Origin: Escherichia coli
GTDB lineage: Bacteria > Pseudomonadota > Gammaproteobacteria > Enterobacterales > Enterobacteriaceae
Assembly: GCF_001677475.2 (NCBI RefSeq)
Contig: NZ_CP015229.1
Length of the DNA stretch: 64,000 nt
Reading direction: 5' to 3' (one strand)
The notes beneath the pieces are model-generated. The model saw only the letters and a list, made by a program, of their open reading frames with translations, searched no databases and had not been told where the DNA came from. Of this stretch, positions 30,715 through 38,143 are shown in pieces (position 1 is the first letter of the stretch; each line of letters opens with the position of its first letter). Position numbers and translations under genes: made by a program.

Positions 30715-31278
30715 TTATAGATATTGAACTTTGAAGGTCGCATCTGCGTTTGCAGTACCAGCTACTGACTGCCCGAGAGCAATATAACGAGCCTGGAATG
30801 GCAGTATATTCGTGCCATCAATCAAGTCAGTTTTAGCGCTAAAAGTGGTACCATCAAGTATTAATACCTCCCCCGTACGGTCCAAAATTTGAATACCAAC
30901 ATTTTGGGCAGAGCCTGCCGCTGAACTCTGCAGCGCTAACGTGTCGTCATTACTGGTGACAGTAGTACCCAGGAATGCAACAGCTGCATTACTGGAAACA
31001 TTGGTATCACAATCATTCAGCTTGATATTGAAGCCAACGGCGGAGCTGAGGTCACCCGCTTTAGCCAGACGAGAAGAACGGACCTGACCCAGCTCAACCG
31101 TTTGGTTCATTGATTCTGAATCAATCGCACAAGCGGCATTTACCACTTCACCTTTAAAATGAATAACACCGCCATTAACAGTGGTCGTTACTGATTCATC
31201 ACCCTCGGCTGCGCTTACCGCAGCAGACGACATCGCCAACACAGAAACGACAATCATACCGACATGTTTGAGTTTCAT
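30715..31278 (-). CDS. Major fimbrial subunit (FimA-like)
   Basis: ORF 30715..31326 trimmed to [23 protein letters not shown]... (187 aa), preceded by GGAG; first gene of the operon. Confidence 0.8.
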
Positions 31279-31711
31279 AATTCTCCAAAATCTATATTTA
31301 AGTAGCTGAATAAAGAGAGTTAACAATTAAGTCATTCTGTTATTGCTTATAAAACAAGAATCATTCTTGATTGGTTGTTGCCCTGAGAATATAGTTTCCA
31401 GGGTTATTACATTTCACGAAGAACGATAATATCTTTAAATCACAAGGACACCTAATCACAACAAGTTTATTGCTGCACTTGTTGGAGAGAGTATTTGCAA
31501 AAACATTTTATGGCGCTAAATAACATGACGATTTCATTATGCATGTTATTTATAAACCGTGACTAAACAGAATATTATTGCGGACAAGGGAAGTGTCAGG
31601 AAAGGTCAAGAGATACTAATGGTTTATATGGCTATAAATCATTAGTTATGGTTAATGTTTGCCTGGTGTAACTAACACGGAATTGCTCTAAACAGATAAG
31701 TGCAGGGTTTA

Positions 31712-32062
31712 TTAAAGCTGACCGACAGACTTTCTTAACCTGGTAATATCTCTCTTAGGTGACTCTCCAAACATCCGCGAATATTCCCGACTGAAATGGG
31801 ATAAGCTTTCGTAACCGACAGCATAGGCTGCAGTGGTGACATCGTAATGTTCATTCAGCATCGGTCGCCTGGCTTCATTGAGGCGTAGCCATTTCTGATA
31901 CCGGAGTGGACTCATTCCCGCAAGCTGTCTGAAGTGTTGATGGAAAGAGGGGGGTTCATTTGCACGCGGTTTGCCAGCCTGACTCTTCAACGCAGGGAAG
32001 ATGCGGCAAACGGCAAACCTGCATACCAGCCAGCCTATATCCGGTATGCACAGGCTAATCAT
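31712..32062 (-). pseudogene. yneL: AraC-family regulator fragment (HTH domain only)
   Basis: 116-aa ORF carrying only an AraC-type HTH (…LSHFSREYSRMFGESPKRD…) with no sensing domain; corresponds to the yneL remnant that flanks dif in K-12. Confidence 0.6.
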
Positions 32063-32141
32063 GAAAGAGGAGAGGCTTTATGTTCTTGAACCCTGAAGTA
32101 ATAACGACGACCGGAAAATCGCTTCGCATCACTCAAACTCA

Positions 32142-32169
32142 ATTTAACATAATATACATTATGCGCACT
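32142..32169. other. dif-like site, left junction (attL): host-like XerD arm, phage-like XerC arm
   Basis: ATTTAACATAA-TATACA-TTATGCGCACT; 27 of 28 identical to the reverse complement of E. coli dif (GGTGCGCATAATGTATATTATGTTAAAT, recalled); the single mismatch is the outermost base of the XerC arm. Confidence 0.85.
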
Positions 32170-32181
32170 AAGGTGCGCATA
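32160..32181 (+). repeat. 9-bp perfect inverted repeat of the XerC-binding arm
   Basis: TATGCGCAC-TAAG-GTGCGCATA; the left half is the XerC arm of attL, the right half an inverted copy; overlaps a 10-bp palindrome CGCATATGCG (32176..32185). Confidence 0.8.
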
Positions 32182-32202
32182 TGCGTATTCTGGAGGTGTG
32201 TC

Positions 32203-33066
32203 ATGGCTTGTACTCGTCCTTTGAACGCGTACCAAATGCCATCGGGGAAGATTTTTTTCACGCCGTCACGTGGCGCTAAATTCATTCAGTTGCCCTGTGG
32301 TCAGTGCATCGGTTGCCGTCTTGCTCATTCTCGTGACTGGGCGACCCGCTGCGTTCATGAAGCCCACATGCACGATCACAATTGTTTTATCACTCTGACT
32401 TATTCGCCTGAGAATTTACCTGAAGGCGGTACTCTCGTTCGTAAACATTTCACCGATTTTATGAAGCGTTTGCGTAAGGAATTAGATAAGGATGATGTGA
32501 AAATTCGTTATTTTGGCTGTGGTGAATATGGCTCTAAATTAGAGCGACCGCATTATCATGCGATTATTTTTGGTTATGATTTTCCGGATAAGACACTTTA
32601 TAAAGCGGGAAGATTTAATTTATTTAATTCCCCGCTTCTTTCGAGATGTTGGAATCTTGGTTGGGCTGTTATTGCTGGTTTTAGTTTTGAGTCGGCTGCT
32701 TATGTGGCGCGATACTGTGTTAAAAAAATCAACGGTTTCCGTGCAGATGAGCATTATGGACATCGCCTACCCGAGTTTTCGGCTATGAGTAATCGCCCAG
32801 GTATTGGGTATGATTTTTTTATGACCTATTACGAGGATATTGTTAATGCAGATGCGTGTATTGGTCGTGGCGGTCGTCAGATAAAACCGCCCCGCTATTA
32901 TGACAAGTTATTATCAGGCTGTGATTTGGAAAAGTTGCAGCAGAATAAAGAAAAGCGCCAGTTAAATGCCCGTGTATTAGACCCGTGGCGTTTGCAGGAT
33001 TTGGATAAGTTTAATCTGGTTAAATTCCAGCGAATGATGAGGAAATTAGAAGATGGCTCACTCTGA
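32203..33066 (+). CDS. Replication initiation protein (VP4, rolling-circle HUH endonuclease)
   Basis: Track ORF 32080..33066 trimmed to MACTRPLNAYQ… (287 aa) with GGAGG 6 nt upstream. Rolling-circle motifs: FITLTY, HYHAIIF (HUH), AAYVARYCVKK (catalytic Tyr pair), plus CGQCIGC. Confidence 0.9.
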   Translation: MACTRPLNAYQMPSGKIFFTPSRGAKFIQLPCGQCIGCRLAHSRDWATRCVHEAHMHDHNCFITLTYSPENLPEGGTLVRKHFTDFMKRLRKELDKDDVKIRYFGCGEYGSKLERPHYHAIIFGYDFPDKTLYKAGRFNLFNSPLLSRCWNLGWAVIAGFSFESAAYVARYCVKKINGFRADEHYGHRLPEFSAMSNRPGIGYDFFMTYYEDIVNADACIGRGGRQIKPPRYYDKLLSGCDLEKLQQNKEKRQLNARVLDPWRLQDLDKFNLVKFQRMMRKLEDGSL

Positions 33067-33322
33067 TGCAGTTTATGTAATTCATGACAAGCTGATTGCG
33101 GCTGATGTTTTTATGTTTATGGCCCAGCATGATGGTATTGCGAAAGGCAATTTGCACGCGTTCTGTAACCGTATGCAGCGCACTGACTTTGTGCTGTACC
33201 GTGTGACGGCTTATGACTTTGAAGACCAGCAGCTCGTCCCCGTGGACATTGACCGCGTTTATATTTGCACCGCTTTCCCTGCCATGCTGGAGAATGCCCA
33301 AGATGAAATCCTTGAAGCGTAA
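33053..33322 (+). CDS. Small phage protein, VP5-like
   Basis: 89-aa ORF overlapping the VP4 3' end and the VP3 start; assigned by size and position in the gokushovirus gene order, not by motif. Confidence 0.6.
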   Translation: MAHSDAVYVIHDKLIAADVFMFMAQHDGIAKGNLHAFCNRMQRTDFVLYRVTAYDFEDQQLVPVDIDRVYICTAFPAMLENAQDEILEA

Positions 33323-33815
33323 GTTCCATACCCGCTATGACCCGCCGCCGTCGCCCGGCATCGAGTTCAAAGAACCCACGATGACCCAGCAGCATTTCCG
33401 CGATGAGTGCGACATCAACAAGATTGTTGAGCGTGCGATAAGAACGGGAGATACGACAGTCTTTACCAGTGCTCAACGTGCTGATTTCTACGATGCATCT
33501 TCGATTACTGACTACGTGGACGCAATGGCTTTAATTGACGACGTTAACGACGACTTTAACAGCCTGCCGTCCACGATTCGCTCGATGTTTGGTAATAACG
33601 TTAAGCAGTACGTTGAGTGGATGAGTAATCCCGCGAACTGGAATAAAGCCCGTGAGCTTGGATTGTTGAGCGGCGGAGAGGAGTCGGCGACCGAACGCGC
33701 CAGCGTTCGCGAGTCGAGTCCTGCTCCGGCGTCCCCGCGGGAGCGTGAGCGGACTTCGGAGAGTTCCCCGAAGGGGGAGTCGGAGAAGTCTGCGAATAAT
33801 GATGCAGGCTCATGA
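33303..33815 (+). CDS. Internal scaffolding protein, VP3-like
   Basis: ORF 33213..33815; likely start MKSLKRKFHTRYDPPPSPGIEF… (33303, or 33294); acidic Ser/Glu-rich C-terminus. Assigned by position and size. Confidence 0.6.
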   Translation: MKSLKRKFHTRYDPPPSPGIEFKEPTMTQQHFRDECDINKIVERAIRTGDTTVFTSAQRADFYDASSITDYVDAMALIDDVNDDFNSLPSTIRSMFGNNVKQYVEWMSNPANWNKARELGLLSGGEESATERASVRESSPAPASPRERERTSESSPKGESEKSANNDAGS

Positions 33816-33855
33816 GCTGCATGAAAAAAACCTGAAGACGGCTCCGGCCCTTCAG

Positions 33856-33892
33856 CCTGGCACAGTGGCCCTCTTGATGTAACTGTGCCAGG
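33856..33892 (+). repeat. 11-bp perfect stem-loop in the VP3-VP1 intergenic region
   Basis: cctggcacagt-(15 nt)-actgtgccagg. Confidence 0.8.
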
Positions 33893-33904
33893 TGACACCG
33901 AAAC

Positions 33905-33932
33905 TTACAGGCGGCTCCCACGAAGCCTGTAA
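33905..33932 (+). repeat. 8-bp stem-loop in the VP3-VP1 intergenic region
   Basis: ttacaggc-(12 nt)-gcctgtaa. Confidence 0.75.
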
Positions 33933-33992
33933 AAAGGTGTCAGTTTATACAGTAGTTTGTGTAGTATTTAAACAATTCCCTGAGGGGGGTTT

Positions 33993-35705
33993 ATGAGTAA
34001 ATTCGGTCGTAAAGTACCTAGTAATGCAAAAAGTCAGCATAATTTTTCAGTAATCCCGAGTGCCAATATTCAGCGTTCGGTCTTTAACCGCAGCTCTGGT
34101 TATAAAACCACTTTTGACGCTGGTTATTTGATTCCCGTGTTTCTGGATGAGGCTTTGCCGGGTGATACATTCCACCTGAAAACGTCCATACTGGCGCGTT
34201 TATCCACGCCAGTGGTGCCGTTTATGGATAACCTGCGACTGGACATCCAGTATTTTTCCGTGCCCTACCGTCTGGTCTGGGATAACTGGCAGAAATTCAA
34301 CGGTGAACAGAAGAATCCTGGCGATTCGACGGATTACCTTATTCCGCAGATTAAAGCCCCTGCTGGCGGCTTCCCTGTAGGCTCCCTTGCCGATTATTTT
34401 GGTGTTCCCACAGGTGTGGAGAATATCAGTGTAAGCGCCCTGCCGTTCCGCGCTTATAACCTGATTTATAACGAGTGGTATCGTGATGAAAACCTGATTA
34501 ATTCCGCCCCGCTTCCGCTTGGCGATGAGGAAGAAACAGGCCTCGCCAATTTCCCGCTGCGTAAGCGTGCCAAGCGTCACGATTACTTCACAAGTGCTCT
34601 GCCGTGGCCTCAGAAGGGTGAAGGCGTTGAGATTGGTTTAGGCGTTCCGCCGTCGTATACGCTCGATTTCCCGACCTATCCTGATGGTCTGCCGTTTGTT
34701 TCTTATGGCGTTGGTGTCGATGGAGATATGACTTCGCACAATCCGACTTATCTTGCCCGTAATAATGTTAACGAAGGCTCATCATACGAGGCCTATGGTA
34801 ATGCGGTTTATATGAGTGACGGCAGGAATCCCAGCAATCCGCTGGAATGGCCTCCTATGTCGCCCTCCACTGGACGTATTGATGTTATTGGTGGTTTTAG
34901 CAGAAACCAGCCTCCGGTTACGTTAAATAAGCAAGGTGGTGAAGTTGTCGATAATCTGACAATTAACTCGCTGCGTCAGGCGTTCCAGCTTCAGCGGCTG
35001 CTTGAGCGCGATGCTCGCGGTGGTACTCGCTATATTGAGATTATCCGCTCCCACTTTGGCGTTATTTCGCCTGATGCCCGTGTACAGCGTCCCGAGTATC
35101 TCGGCTCTGGTTCATTCGACATAAATATTAATCCTGTTCTTCAAAACTCCGCGACGACCGACGCAAGTCCGCAAGGCAACCTCGCGGCCTATGGTGTCTC
35201 CGGTGGTGTTAACCGTGGATTTTCTCATTCTTTTGTGGAGCACTGTTTTGTTATTGGCCTTGTTAGCGTTCGTGCTGACCTGACCTACCAGCAAGGCATC
35301 CCGCGCATGTTCTCCCGCCAGACCCGCTTTGATTTCTACTGGCCTGCACTGGCTCACCTGGGCGAACAGGCTATCCTTAACAAGGAGATTTACGCGCAAG
35401 GCAACGACAAGGATGATGAAGTATTTGGCTACCAGGAACGTTACGCGGAGTACCGCTACCGACCGTCTCAGATTACTGGTAAATTGCGTTCTACCGACCC
35501 GCAATCCCTCGATGTGTGGCATTTAGCCCAGCGGTTCGACTCTCTGCCCGCACTGAATCAGGAGTTTATCGAGGAGAATCCACCGATGAAGCGCGTCCTC
35601 GCCGTACAGGACGAGCCTCAGTTCATCATGGATGCGTTCTTCGACCTGAAGTGTGTGCGGCCTATGCCTGTTTACTCAGTACCAGGTCTTATCGATCATT
35701 TCTAA
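33993..35705 (+). CDS. Major capsid protein (VP1, Microviridae F-protein family)
   Basis: 570-aa ORF MSKFGRKVPSNAKSQHNFSVIPSANIQRSVFNRSSGYKTTFDAGYLIPVFLDEALPGDTF…, closely resembling the conserved N-terminal block of gokushovirus VP1 (recalled Chlamydia-phage pattern …IQRS.F.RS.G.KTTFDAGYLIP…PGDTF…); RBS GAGGGGGG. Confidence 0.9.
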   Translation: MSKFGRKVPSNAKSQHNFSVIPSANIQRSVFNRSSGYKTTFDAGYLIPVFLDEALPGDTFHLKTSILARLSTPVVPFMDNLRLDIQYFSVPYRLVWDNWQKFNGEQKNPGDSTDYLIPQIKAPAGGFPVGSLADYFGVPTGVENISVSALPFRAYNLIYNEWYRDENLINSAPLPLGDEEETGLANFPLRKRAKRHDYFTSALPWPQKGEGVEIGLGVPPSYTLDFPTYPDGLPFVSYGVGVDGDMTSHNPTYLARNNVNEGSSYEAYGNAVYMSDGRNPSNPLEWPPMSPSTGRIDVIGGFSRNQPPVTLNKQGGEVVDNLTINSLRQAFQLQRLLERDARGGTRYIEIIRSHFGVISPDARVQRPEYLGSGSFDININPVLQNSATTDASPQGNLAAYGVSGGVNRGFSHSFVEHCFVIGLVSVRADLTYQQGIPRMFSRQTRFDFYWPALAHLGEQAILNKEIYAQGNDKDDEVFGYQERYAEYRYRPSQITGKLRSTDPQSLDVWHLAQRFDSLPALNQEFIEENPPMKRVLAVQDEPQFIMDAFFDLKCVRPMPVYSVPGLIDHF

Positions 35706-35722
35706 GTTACATTGTCACTTTT

Positions 35723-35745
35723 GGCCTCTGCGGAGGCCTTTTTTT
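35723..35745 (+). terminator. Intrinsic terminator/attenuator after the capsid gene
   Basis: ggcctc-tgcg-gaggcc followed by TTTTTTT. Confidence 0.7.
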
Positions 35746-35759
35746 CATGAGGTGAAATT

Positions 35760-36542
35760 ATGGGCTTTTTATCATCTGCCATTGGTGCCGCTGGTTCTAT
35801 TGCCGGCTCCCTGCTTGGTGCGAACTCTGCGAAGGATTCAGCTAACCGTGCCAATAAGTTAACGATGGATTTGGCCAAAAACGGCATCCAGTACCGTGTG
35901 CAGGATTTACGGAAAGCTGGCCTTAACCCCATTCTGGCCGTTACTGGTTCCGGTGGTCTTGGTTCCGTCAGTTCGTCAGGTATTCAGGCCGCCCAGCCTG
36001 CCGATTTTTCTGGTGTGGTTAATTCTGCGGTCAGCGTATTTGACGCATTAACGAAGCGTCAGCAGCAGGAAGTCGCTAAGGAAGGCATCATGTCCCAGAT
36101 TGCGTTACAACGTAACCAGATTGCGAATAGCGCGGCTGATGTGAAGCTCAAAGAGGCTCAGGCTGCGCAAGCCTTATCTTCCATTTCTACTGGTAATGCC
36201 CAGACTAATTTGATTAATCAGCAGGCTTTGACCGAGGCTTCCCGCCGTGCCAATATTGAAGCACAGACGGGCCTTAGTTCTGCGCAGCGGATTAGAACAC
36301 AGTATCAAACTGTACAGGACAAGGTTTTGGCTGATTATTTGAATACACCGATTGGAGCTGAAAGTGCACGTGTCAATATGGATGCTTCTCGCGGTGGTAT
36401 CGTTGGCGGCGTTAATACTTTTCTGCGTTCTTTGCAACGTGATTACCCGTCTAACTCGAACTCTGCGAAGAAAGTAAACAAGGGGGGAACCTTCCCCCCT
36501 TCACAGTTCCAACAGCAATTGATTAATAACTATCGGAGGTAA
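35760..36542 (+). CDS. Minor capsid / DNA pilot protein (VP2-like)
   Basis: 260-aa ORF with Gly/Ala/Ser-rich N-terminus (MGFLSSAIGAAGSIAGSLLGANSA…) and Gln/Ala-rich predicted coiled region; RBS GAGGTG; position after VP1. Confidence 0.7.
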   Translation: MGFLSSAIGAAGSIAGSLLGANSAKDSANRANKLTMDLAKNGIQYRVQDLRKAGLNPILAVTGSGGLGSVSSSGIQAAQPADFSGVVNSAVSVFDALTKRQQQEVAKEGIMSQIALQRNQIANSAADVKLKEAQAAQALSSISTGNAQTNLINQQALTEASRRANIEAQTGLSSAQRIRTQYQTVQDKVLADYLNTPIGAESARVNMDASRGGIVGGVNTFLRSLQRDYPSNSNSAKKVNKGGTFPPSQFQQQLINNYRR

Positions 36543-36543
36543 T

Positions 36544-36663
36544 ATGGCTCGTTCTCGCCGTCGTATGTCCAAGCGTTCTTCCCGTCGTTCGTTCCGTAAG
36601 TACGCAAAGACGCATAAACGTAACTTTAAAGCCCGCTCTATGCGTGGTGGAATTCGTCTTTGA
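36544..36663 (+). CDS. Small basic DNA-binding protein (VP8 / J-like), absent from the ORF track
   Basis: ATG at 36544, stop TGA 36661..36663; translation MARSRRRMSKRSSRRSFRKYAKTHKRNFKARSMRGGIRL (39 aa, roughly 40% Arg/Lys). Confidence 0.7.
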   Translation: MARSRRRMSKRSSRRSFRKYAKTHKRNFKARSMRGGIRL

Positions 36664-36693
36664 TTGACAAAGTTGATCGTAACGATCTATGAT
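36664..36693 (+). promoter_or_regulatory. Putative sigma70 promoter at the prophage right end
   Basis: TTGACA (36664..36669), 18-bp spacer, TATGAT (36688..36693); the spacer contains GATCGTAACGATC with two GATC sites. Pattern match only. Confidence 0.35.
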
Positions 36694-36716
36694 AATTATC
36701 GTAAGTCGTTGTTTTT

Positions 36717-36744
36717 GTTAAACTAAATATACATTATGCGCACC
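36717..36744. other. dif-like site, right junction (attR): phage-like degenerate XerD arm, host-like XerC arm
   Basis: GTTAAACTAAA-TATACA-TTATGCGCACC; XerD arm 7 of 11, central region 6 of 6, XerC arm 11 of 11 versus dif. Confidence 0.8.
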
Positions 36745-36820
36745 AACATAAACCAAGGGAGAATCCAGTCGTTGGCGGTCATGATTGTCCTGCTCATTAA
36801 CAACGGCCAAACCCCATATC

Positions 36821-38143
36821 TTACTTAATACCGTATTCTCGGCTTAACCGACGGTGCAACCTCAACACATTGGTTTCAACTGCCGTCACCACGTTCTTCG
36901 GAAAATCTGTCGGTAATGAAGTCTTCACGTTATCCAGTGCTGCCGGAATCATTCTGGCAAAGTCACTCAGGATTTCATGCATCTGCACTTCCGGAAATTT
37001 CAGCACCTTTGCTGTCGCCAGAAAATGTCGCGGATAAATTTTATCGATTGCCGTTTTTTTGCCTTTGGATGAGTTAAGCCCCATTGCCAGTTTGAGATCG
37101 CTAATGTGTATTCCTGCGCCACCCAATACCGGAAATGCTGAAATGATGTCGTAAAATGGCGTGAGTCGATAACTGCCGCCAGCCTGAATAAATACGGAGA
37201 AGTTTTTTGCATGGCCATCCGTTGCGCCAATCAACCACTGGAACACCTGAAACTTCATAAAATCATAGCGATCTTTCAGCGCCTCGCTGGACCCCATCAA
37301 AAAAGCCATGATCCGCGCGATACCTGGGCCTCCATCTGATTCATATTTCACCGATGAAGGTAAACCGAATGTCTGACACATATCCTCCTGTGGCAAGCGA
37401 AGTAAAACCGTTCGCTCAGCATTCCAACGCCTGTCAAAACGTTCGACCGCTAACGCACGCACATTTCCCGCTTTAATGATTTCTGCGTCCGGCACATTCA
37501 ACCCAAGTTCTTTCGCCAGCAGCAGACAGTAATACTCATTATCAACGCTTTGGCTGAGATCGAGCGTCGCATTGGGCTGCCTGATTTCGCCAATCGGTAA
37601 TTTAATGATGTGTGTCGTCGGCGTTATTCCTTTCGGAATGCACCAGTCATTGCCTATTCTGAGCAGCGCTGTCTTCTCCTGCGCGCCAGCAACCGAGATG
37701 CGAAAGTCATTTTCTTCTCTAATCATGCCTAGAGGGATATCTGCTTTATAAGCCGTTAATACTTCTTCAAGCCTGGCTTCAGTGAGCTGCTCCCATGCCA
37801 TTATCGGGCGCGTTATGGTTTCATTTTCGGGTAATAACGTTACGGCACCAACGCTGTCTCGCCCTATTTCTGACAATAAATCAAACGGTTGTCTGGATTT
37901 AGCATGATAACGTTTAACGATCCGGTCACGTACAATCGGGCTATCGGGTAGCAGGTTATCGAAGAAGTTAAATACGGCATCAGAGGTGATATTCCCCCTC
38001 TGCAATGGCAGCGAAAGTGACAACGGTCTGGCATAACGGTTAGCTAACCACTCCGGTGCATACTTAAAGGTGTGCGCGCCATTGGCTAACTTCGTTAACT
38101 CGCCTACCCGCTGGTTGTTCATCCAAGTGACAAGTTTAGGCAT
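36821..38143 (-). CDS. hipA: Ser/Thr kinase toxin HipA
   Basis: ORF 36821..38200 trimmed to MPKLVTWMNNQRVGELTKLANGAHTFKYAPEWL… (440 aa); start overlaps the hipB stop by 1 nt. Confidence 0.92.
   Translation of the reverse strand: MPKLVTWMNNQRVGELTKLANGAHTFKYAPEWLANRYARPLSLSLPLQRGNITSDAVFNFFDNLLPDSPIVRDRIVKRYHAKSRQPFDLLSEIGRDSVGAVTLLPENETITRPIMAWEQLTEARLEEVLTAYKADIPLGMIREENDFRISVAGAQEKTALLRIGNDWCIPKGITPTTHIIKLPIGEIRQPNATLDLSQSVDNEYYCLLLAKELGLNVPDAEIIKAGNVRALAVERFDRRWNAERTVLLRLPQEDMCQTFGLPSSVKYESDGGPGIARIMAFLMGSSEALKDRYDFMKFQVFQWLIGATDGHAKNFSVFIQAGGSYRLTPFYDIISAFPVLGGAGIHISDLKLAMGLNSSKGKKTAIDKIYPRHFLATAKVLKFPEVQMHEILSDFARMIPAALDNVKTSLPTDFPKNVVTAVETNVLRLHRRLSREYGIK

Follow-up and report, generated by a model that had tools for sequence, protein, structure and literature searches.

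A short Arg/Lys-rich open reading frame as vp8, the last gene of a dif-integrated enterogokushovirus prophage in Escherichia

The 39-codon ORF at positions 36544-36663 of the window, i.e. of the whole stretch of 64,000 nucleotides of Escherichia coli DNA that was analyzed, is almost certainly vp8, the last gene of an intact enterogokushovirus prophage (Microviridae, Gokushovirinae) that was integrated by XerC/XerD at the dif site of an Escherichia chromosome. An earlier note on this DNA had proposed that the ORF encodes a small basic DNA-condensing or packaging protein of Microviridae, "VP8, or J of phiX174". The assignment as VP8 is supported by 100% identity of the deduced protein to VP8 of Enterogokushovirus EC6098 and to chain E of PDB entry 8DES, while the assignment as J failed at the level of sequence similarity, as detailed below. 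VP8 of enterogokushoviruses is already known: it has been annotated since 2020, and a virion structure from 2022 contains the identical protein. Biologically, the present result is therefore nothing new, but the ORF helps to confirm that the window carries a complete, probably viable, dif-integrated gokushovirus prophage.

The prophage comprises the following features, listed by position:

32142-32169, minus strand: bacterial-type dif site matching E. coli dif GGTGCGCATAATGTATATTATGTTAAAT at 27/28 positions, left boundary of the prophage (mismatch scan)
32161-33066, plus strand: vp4, rolling-circle replication initiator, 301 aa; Pfam REP_ORF2-G2P
33053-33322, plus strand: vp5, small nonstructural protein, 89 aa; 82% identity to EC6098 VP5 over the full length
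33294-33815, plus strand: vp3, internal scaffolding protein; Pfam Chlamy_scaf, E=2.8e-34; 88.6% identity to EC6098 VP3
33993-35705, plus strand: vp1, major capsid protein, 570 aa; Pfam Phage_F, E=1.7e-184; 90.5% identity to EC6098 VP1
35760-36542, plus strand: vp2, DNA pilot (minor capsid) protein, 260 aa; 75% identity to EC6098 VP2 over the full length
36535-36539, plus strand: Shine-Dalgarno sequence GGAGG, 4 nt before the vp8 ATG, within the last vp2 codons
36544-36663, plus strand: vp8, 39 aa, ATG start, TGA stop at 36661-36663 (from the reading frame and its translation)
36717-36744, minus strand: phage-borne dif-like site, 24/28 match, right prophage boundary (mismatch scan)

When the six EC6098 proteins were used as queries in tblastn, the genes vp4-vp5-vp3-vp1-vp2-vp8 were found to be collinear and essentially full-length. 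Residues 1-301 of EC6098 VP4 aligned to 32161-33063 with 91% identity. The VP3 alignment ended at residue 149 of 167, and vp3 is taken to start at the ATG at either 33294 or 33303. For vp5, the match to Pfam Phage_ORF5 (E=7.5e-5, 22.7 bits) was under the 27-bit cut-off, and vp2 matched a PHROG family annotated as "pilot protein for DNA ejection" (E=1.8e-17). The two dif sites are 4,575 nt apart. In the phage-borne site, the 17 bases of the spacer and the XerC arm are identical to dif, all mismatches being located in the XerD arm. Gene order, size (4.3-4.7 kb) and the presence of two dif sites agree with the enterogokushovirus prophages described previously, which integrate via XerC/XerD, carry the genes vp4-vp5-vp3-vp1-vp2-vp8 and are bounded by a conserved bacterial and a variable phage dif (Kirchberger and Ochman, PMC7062461). 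A megablast search with the 5-kb block retrieved EC6098 (Enterogokushovirus, MT185428/NC_048874) with about 92% and Microvirus mar4 with 84% identity. The prophage adjoins hipBA, and its flanks (hipA, hipB and, on the right, an ECSE_1600-type autotransporter) match E. coli chromosomes with up to 98.5% identity, which places the host in Escherichia. An Rfam search at E<=1 over positions 31000-38000 found nothing, and therefore no known RNA family accounts for this region.

Two further observations concern the genes upstream of vp8. The XerC arm of the left dif site includes the ATG of vp4 (…ACATTATGCGCACT); the EC6098 record is organized alike, with dif at 1-28 and vp4 starting at 21. A host-derived N-terminal extension of VP4 in the lysogen is formally possible, because a longer ORF starting from the ATG at 32080 crosses dif in the vp4 frame. 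Between vp1 and vp2, 18 nt past the vp1 stop, there is a GC-rich hairpin followed by a T-run on the plus strand (GGCCTCTGCGGAGGCC TTTTTTT, 35723-35745), which resembles an intrinsic terminator or attenuator separating vp1 from vp2 and vp8. With efficient termination here, vp2 and vp8 would be produced in smaller amounts than vp1, which is seemingly at odds with the expected 1:1 ratio of VP8 to VP1.

Translation of the ORF at 36544-36663 (plus strand) yielded MARSRRRMSKRSSRRSFRKYAKTHKRNFKARSMRGGIRL, bearing out the Arg/Lys-rich ORF of 39 aa that had been described from the letters. It was also correctly noted that the ORF begins 2 nt past the VP2 stop: the ATG is found 2 positions after the last base of the stop codon, with T36543 as the single base between the vp2 TAA (36540-36542) and the vp8 ATG. 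The motif GGAGG is present 4-5 nt upstream of the vp8 ATG in 9/9 copies of the gene, including those with a differing vp2 3' end, and translation of vp8 is probably coupled to termination of vp2. The ORF was absent from the ORF track, as had been stated, because with 39 aa it is shorter than the default of 60 aa used by the ORF lister. The length of the vp8 ORF by itself carries no weight, since the six frames of the window contain 604 ORFs of at least 30 aa, 420 of which have 30-60 aa. Its composition is exceptional: Lys and Arg make up 17 of the 39 residues (44%), placing vp8 at the top of the 604 ORFs, the second-ranked of which reaches 30%. There are no Asp or Glu residues, the computed pI reaches 12.0, and the mass of the product is 4.8 kDa.

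An ORF of this size might simply be a chance frame in a non-coding spacer between vp2 and dif, deriving its basicity from CGT-rich sequence. The abundance of ORFs of 30-60 aa in the window would be in line with this idea, and so would the results that neither Pfam (E<=1) nor NCBIfam contains a model matching the 39-aa protein and that PGAP did not call the gene in 6/6 E. coli genomes. However, comparison of nine copies, i.e. of the window, EC6098, mar4 and the prophages of six complete E. coli genomes (out of 5,426), whose genomes differ by 8-17% in DNA, showed that the variation is nearly all synonymous. The ORF was intact in 9/9 copies and the GGAGG motif was kept. Although 26 of the 120 nucleotides vary, 20 of the 22 variable codons (the stop codon being among the 22) exhibit purely synonymous changes, and the only differences in the protein are T23S and R26K, both of which are conservative. 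For the most divergent vp8 pairs, NG86 estimates were 0.04-0.065 for dN versus 0.84-0.98 for dS, corresponding to a dN/dS of about 0.07. Hence, vp8 is under purifying selection. Lack of conservation in related prophages, named in the earlier note as an argument against the ORF, was thus not observed. Of note, the basicity far beyond that of the other ORFs in the window, the identity of the protein to a chain in a solved virion structure (8DES) and a family with an invariant C-terminal motif that reaches distant gokushoviruses likewise speak against a chance frame. The conservation pattern and the PDB chain exclude this explanation, whose probability we consider to be next to nil.

The same alignment was informative in regard to the start codon and the coding strand. 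Codons 4-6 vary synonymously only, which supports the first ATG as the start of vp8. A 30-aa ORF on the minus strand (36523-36615) was rejected, as the third-position periodicity of the substitutions follows the plus-strand frame. VP8 is 100% identical to its EC6098 counterpart in tblastn, while the other five proteins range from 75% to 91%, and by this measure VP8 is the most constrained protein of the phage.

Identity of the ORF was established by several comparisons. The peptide is 100% identical in amino acid sequence to the vp8 product "putative DNA binding protein" (QIQ61034.1) of EC6098, a resurrected and viable phage, in which it is encoded by a 39-aa CDS at the equivalent position. 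Searching the PDB with the peptide retrieved chain E of 8DES, which is identical over 39 aa and entitled "Putative DNA binding protein", and chain A of the same entry matches VP1 of the window over its full length. In PHROGs, the peptide matched phrog_10695 (E=1.6e-10), a family without assigned function, and BLASTP against p10 of phiMH2K yielded 42% identity (E=1e-8). Thus, in sequence the ORF matches EC6098 VP8, 8DES_E, phiMH2K p10 and phrog_10695. The comparison with VP8 of characterized gokushoviruses, which had been suggested as a check, gave agreement in size, charge, C-terminal motif, position and identity. With 39 aa the protein falls among relatives of 38-44 aa, and the gene is on the plus strand as are the other phage genes. 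It is Arg/Lys-rich with zero acidic residues, and it ends with MRGGIRL, conforming to the motif M-R-G-G-[IF]-R-[LFI] at the very end of gokushovirus VP8 proteins. In the circular form, vp8 is followed by dif and then by vp4; location upstream of vp4 is likewise found in EC6098, mar4, Chp2, phiMH2K and the records L013-L018.

The family extends beyond the enterogokushoviruses. A small basic ORF ending with MRGG[IF]R[LFI] was also present in phiMH2K, Chp2 and 6/6 metagenomic microviruses examined. In a 10-sequence VP8 alignment, which includes phiMH2K p10, Chp2 ORF8 and six metagenomic gokushoviruses, residues R5, F17, M33, R34, G35, G36 and R38 are invariant. In the genomes of Chp2 and the metagenomic phages the VP8-like ORF precedes vp4 on the same strand without an intervening gene; phiMH2K is the exception, its ORF likewise being upstream of vp4 but following vp5.

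VP8 might be produced without being part of the virion interior, acting instead as a nonstructural or regulatory protein, e.g. on replication or on the host nucleoid. This idea could draw on the RefSeq label "nonstructural protein", which is attached to EC6098 vp8 (NC_048874) and to Chp2 ORF8, and on the consulted papers, in which no functional genetics of VP8 turned up. The label is at variance with the structural data and seems to be a holdover from earlier annotation: entry 8DES contains the exact VP8 chain together with the capsid protein, density for VP8 within the EC6098 and SpV4 capsids is described in PMC11281519, and purified SpV4 contains a band of 5-10 kDa (PMC11281519). We therefore regard a purely nonstructural role as very improbable. 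Absence of the peptide from virions, which according to the earlier note would have spoken against the proposal, is contradicted by the identical peptide being 8DES chain E and by the reported presence of VP8 within the capsid of EC6098 (PMC11281519).

VP8 has been described as an Arg/Lys-rich analogue of phiX174 J that is important in DNA packaging (PMC11281519). According to that paper, VP8 resides in the interior of the EC6098 capsid, where order is restricted to its 10 C-terminal residues; in EC6098 and SpV4, its C-terminus is buried in a VP1 pocket, as in other microviruses, and its N-terminus points toward the DNA and the interior (PMC11281519). The scaffolding protein is replaced by VP8/J during genome loading (PMC11980548). 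From these data the following scenario may be envisioned for a VP8 protein acting inside the virion. On the late phage mRNA, ribosomes using the GGAGG motif at the end of vp2 would translate vp8, probably in a manner coupled to termination of vp2. The basic N-terminal two thirds of VP8 would bind the new ssDNA genome and neutralize part of its phosphate charge, and VP8 would enter the procapsid together with the DNA while the internal scaffold VP3 departs. The C-terminal MRGGIRL would then insert into the pocket at the inner face of VP1, thereby tethering the genome to the shell. If there were 60 copies of VP8 per T=1 particle, as for J in phiX174, they would contribute ~1,020 positive charges versus 4,575 nt of DNA, i.e. 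~22%. We infer from charge and from the analogy with J that the N-terminal part of EC6098 VP8 contacts DNA; copy number, charge neutralization and expression of VP8 from the prophage in the window are extrapolated.

Annotation of vp8 is systematically incomplete. The prophage was found in only 6 of 5,426 complete E. coli genomes (loci L003-L008: NZ_CP127252, NZ_CM149560, NZ_CP104500, NZ_AP027709, NZ_CP059835 and NZ_CP010122). RefSeq/PGAP annotates vp4, vp5, vp3, vp1 and vp2 in 6/6 of these genomes and vp8 in 0/6, the ORF being intact in each of them. Similarly, among 60 microvirus records with a tblastn match, 38 have no annotated feature at the matching position, and four of the six metagenomic microvirus records examined are without vp8 annotation despite an intact ORF. 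A small profile for the VP8 family ending with MRGGIRL would close this gap.

The DNA preceding vp8 contains a conspicuous hairpin. A perfect 9-bp inverted repeat, AAGGGGGG-AACC-TTCCCCCCTT, is located at 36480-36501 within the 3' end of vp2; its G6-N6-C6 core (36482-36499) lies 62 nt upstream of the vp8 ATG. The G6/C6 stem is present in 9/9 enterogokushovirus copies with the loop variants AACCTT, ACGCCT, ACGCTT and ATTCTT, while the surrounding DNA encoding the VP2 C-terminus is the most variable part of the genome. Moreover, the codon phase of the G-run differs: seven copies encode KGGTFPP here, the other two RGDSSPL. The retention of the stem despite variable surroundings and two codon phases suggests that selection acts on the hairpin, as DNA or RNA, rather than on the peptide encoded at 36482-36499. 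Folded as ssDNA, the hairpin has a free energy of -9.4 kcal/mol (z=-1.9), and in a simple scan it was terminator-like on the minus strand, which is the direction of hipBA transcription entering the prophage. A comparable hairpin was not found in Chp2, SpV4, phiMH2K and 5/6 metagenomic gokushoviruses. Candidate roles are an origin of complementary-strand synthesis on the packaged plus strand, an element determining transcript end or stability, or a barrier to antisense read-through. The nearby sequence CAATTGATTAATAAC (36516-36530) was considered as a counterpart of the phiX174 replication origin CAACTTGATATTAATAAC and rejected: the resemblance is attributable to chance, because 95 of 200 shuffles attained its local alignment score of 20 and two related prophages lack the motif.

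Directly 3' of the vp8 stop, the plus strand carries a sigma-70 promoter-like sequence (TTGACA-18 nt-TATGAT, 36664-36693) that matches the consensus at 11/12 positions and faces the phage dif at 36717-36744. EC6098 and two E. coli prophages share it without change, one further E. coli prophage has TATGGT as its only difference, and mar4 and the remaining three E. coli prophages have different DNA at this place. In PMC7062461, a promoter is mentioned solely in the title of a cited reference. Circularization of the phage would place the promoter-like site about 70 nt ahead of vp4. In the prophage, the site points toward the hipA end, host DNA precedes vp4 (ATG at 32161), and the whole prophage separates the site from vp4. 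Integration might thus cut the replication initiator off from its putative promoter. Between vp2 and vp8, mar4 (L002, MZ089750) contains about 100 extra bases (2533-2631) that are missing from the window, in a region that has been called variable in enterogokushoviruses (PMC7062461). The insert includes an annotated 32-aa hydrophobic ORF, MFSRLLTPVLLALDSLYVAVDAIVKIVRSFGG, whose end is formed by the GGAGG serving vp8. It is conceivable that this ORF encodes a small membrane peptide, possibly a candidate for lysis.

VP8 is the sole enterogokushovirus protein to remain nearly invariant (0-2 conservative changes, with VP2 diverging by 25% in protein and the remaining genome by 8-17% in DNA), which might reflect a second job beyond charge neutralization, although we give this idea only a slim chance. 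Such a job might comprise, for example, sequence-specific recognition of a packaging signal, action together with the G6-N6-C6 hairpin or a function during the carrier or lysogenic state, e.g. in superinfection immunity.

J of phiX174, G4 and alpha3 (Bullavirinae) is a basic peptide of 38 aa that accompanies the ssDNA into the procapsid, where it displaces the internal scaffold and anchors in the coat through its C-terminus. VP8 most likely acts in the same way, yet there is no detectable sequence similarity and the genomic position is another one: phiX174 J (848-964) is located between D/E and F, vp8 of the window after vp2 and before vp4. BLASTP of vp8 against phiX174 J produced no alignment at E<=100, and the Pfam model Microvir_J (PF04726) did not match vp8 at E<=1. 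Moreover, a profile built from 10 VP8 sequences retrieved from the PDB only 8DES_E and a meaningless match (E=1.9), but no J chain. Membership in the J family at the sequence level was thus rejected. VP8 is a functional and positional counterpart of J and not a demonstrable member of its family, because BLASTP, Pfam and the VP8 profile gave no signal. It could still be argued that VP8 is a true sequence homologue of J rather than a mere analogue: both proteins are of similar size (39 versus 38 aa), combine a basic N-terminus with a short hydrophobic C-terminus and occupy the same location in the virion, and the four C-terminal residues are superposable in all solved microviruses (PMC11281519). 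Given the negative searches and the different placement of the genes, we consider homology unlikely, albeit with a chance worth keeping in mind, and adhere to VP8 as the counterpart of J in function.

VP8 of the Spiroplasma phage SpV4 resembles VP8 of the window in name, size (38 aa), charge and location at the inner capsid (PMC11281519), and its seven C-terminal residues superpose on EC6098 VP8 according to the same paper. It has fewer basic residues (PMC11281519) and is too divergent to be retrieved from the PDB by the VP8 profile. Most of SpV4 VP8 is ordered along VP1; in EC6098 VP8, order is limited to the last 10 residues (PMC11281519). A regular-expression search of SpV4 (plus strand, translation table 4, K+R >30%) detected only a 28-aa ORF and not the published VP8 of 38 aa.

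Closer to VP8 of the window are p10 of the Bdellovibrio phage phiMH2K (38 aa) and ORF8 of the Chlamydia phage Chp2 (44 aa), which both have a basic N-terminus and the C-terminal sequence (A/I)MRGGIR(L/F), and whose genes are located upstream of vp4 on the same strand as in the window. The phiMH2K record annotates its small basic ORF as "putative DNA binding protein; similar to phiX174 J". Identity across the alignment is only 38-54%. Gene order also differs, as the gene follows vp3 in Chp2 and vp5 in phiMH2K, and both are lytic phages of intracellular bacteria without a dif site, unlike the prophage in the window.

The closest system is EC6098, whose VP8 has the same 39 aa and is encoded at the same place, with vp2 ahead of it and the phage dif and vp4 behind it, within the same order of six genes and with the same integration at dif. 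At the DNA level, vp8 differs from that of EC6098 at 4 synonymous sites. As the whole prophage is about 88-92% identical and VP2 only 75%, the sequence comparison indicates that the prophage in the window is a different enterogokushovirus lineage from EC6098, carrying the same VP8.
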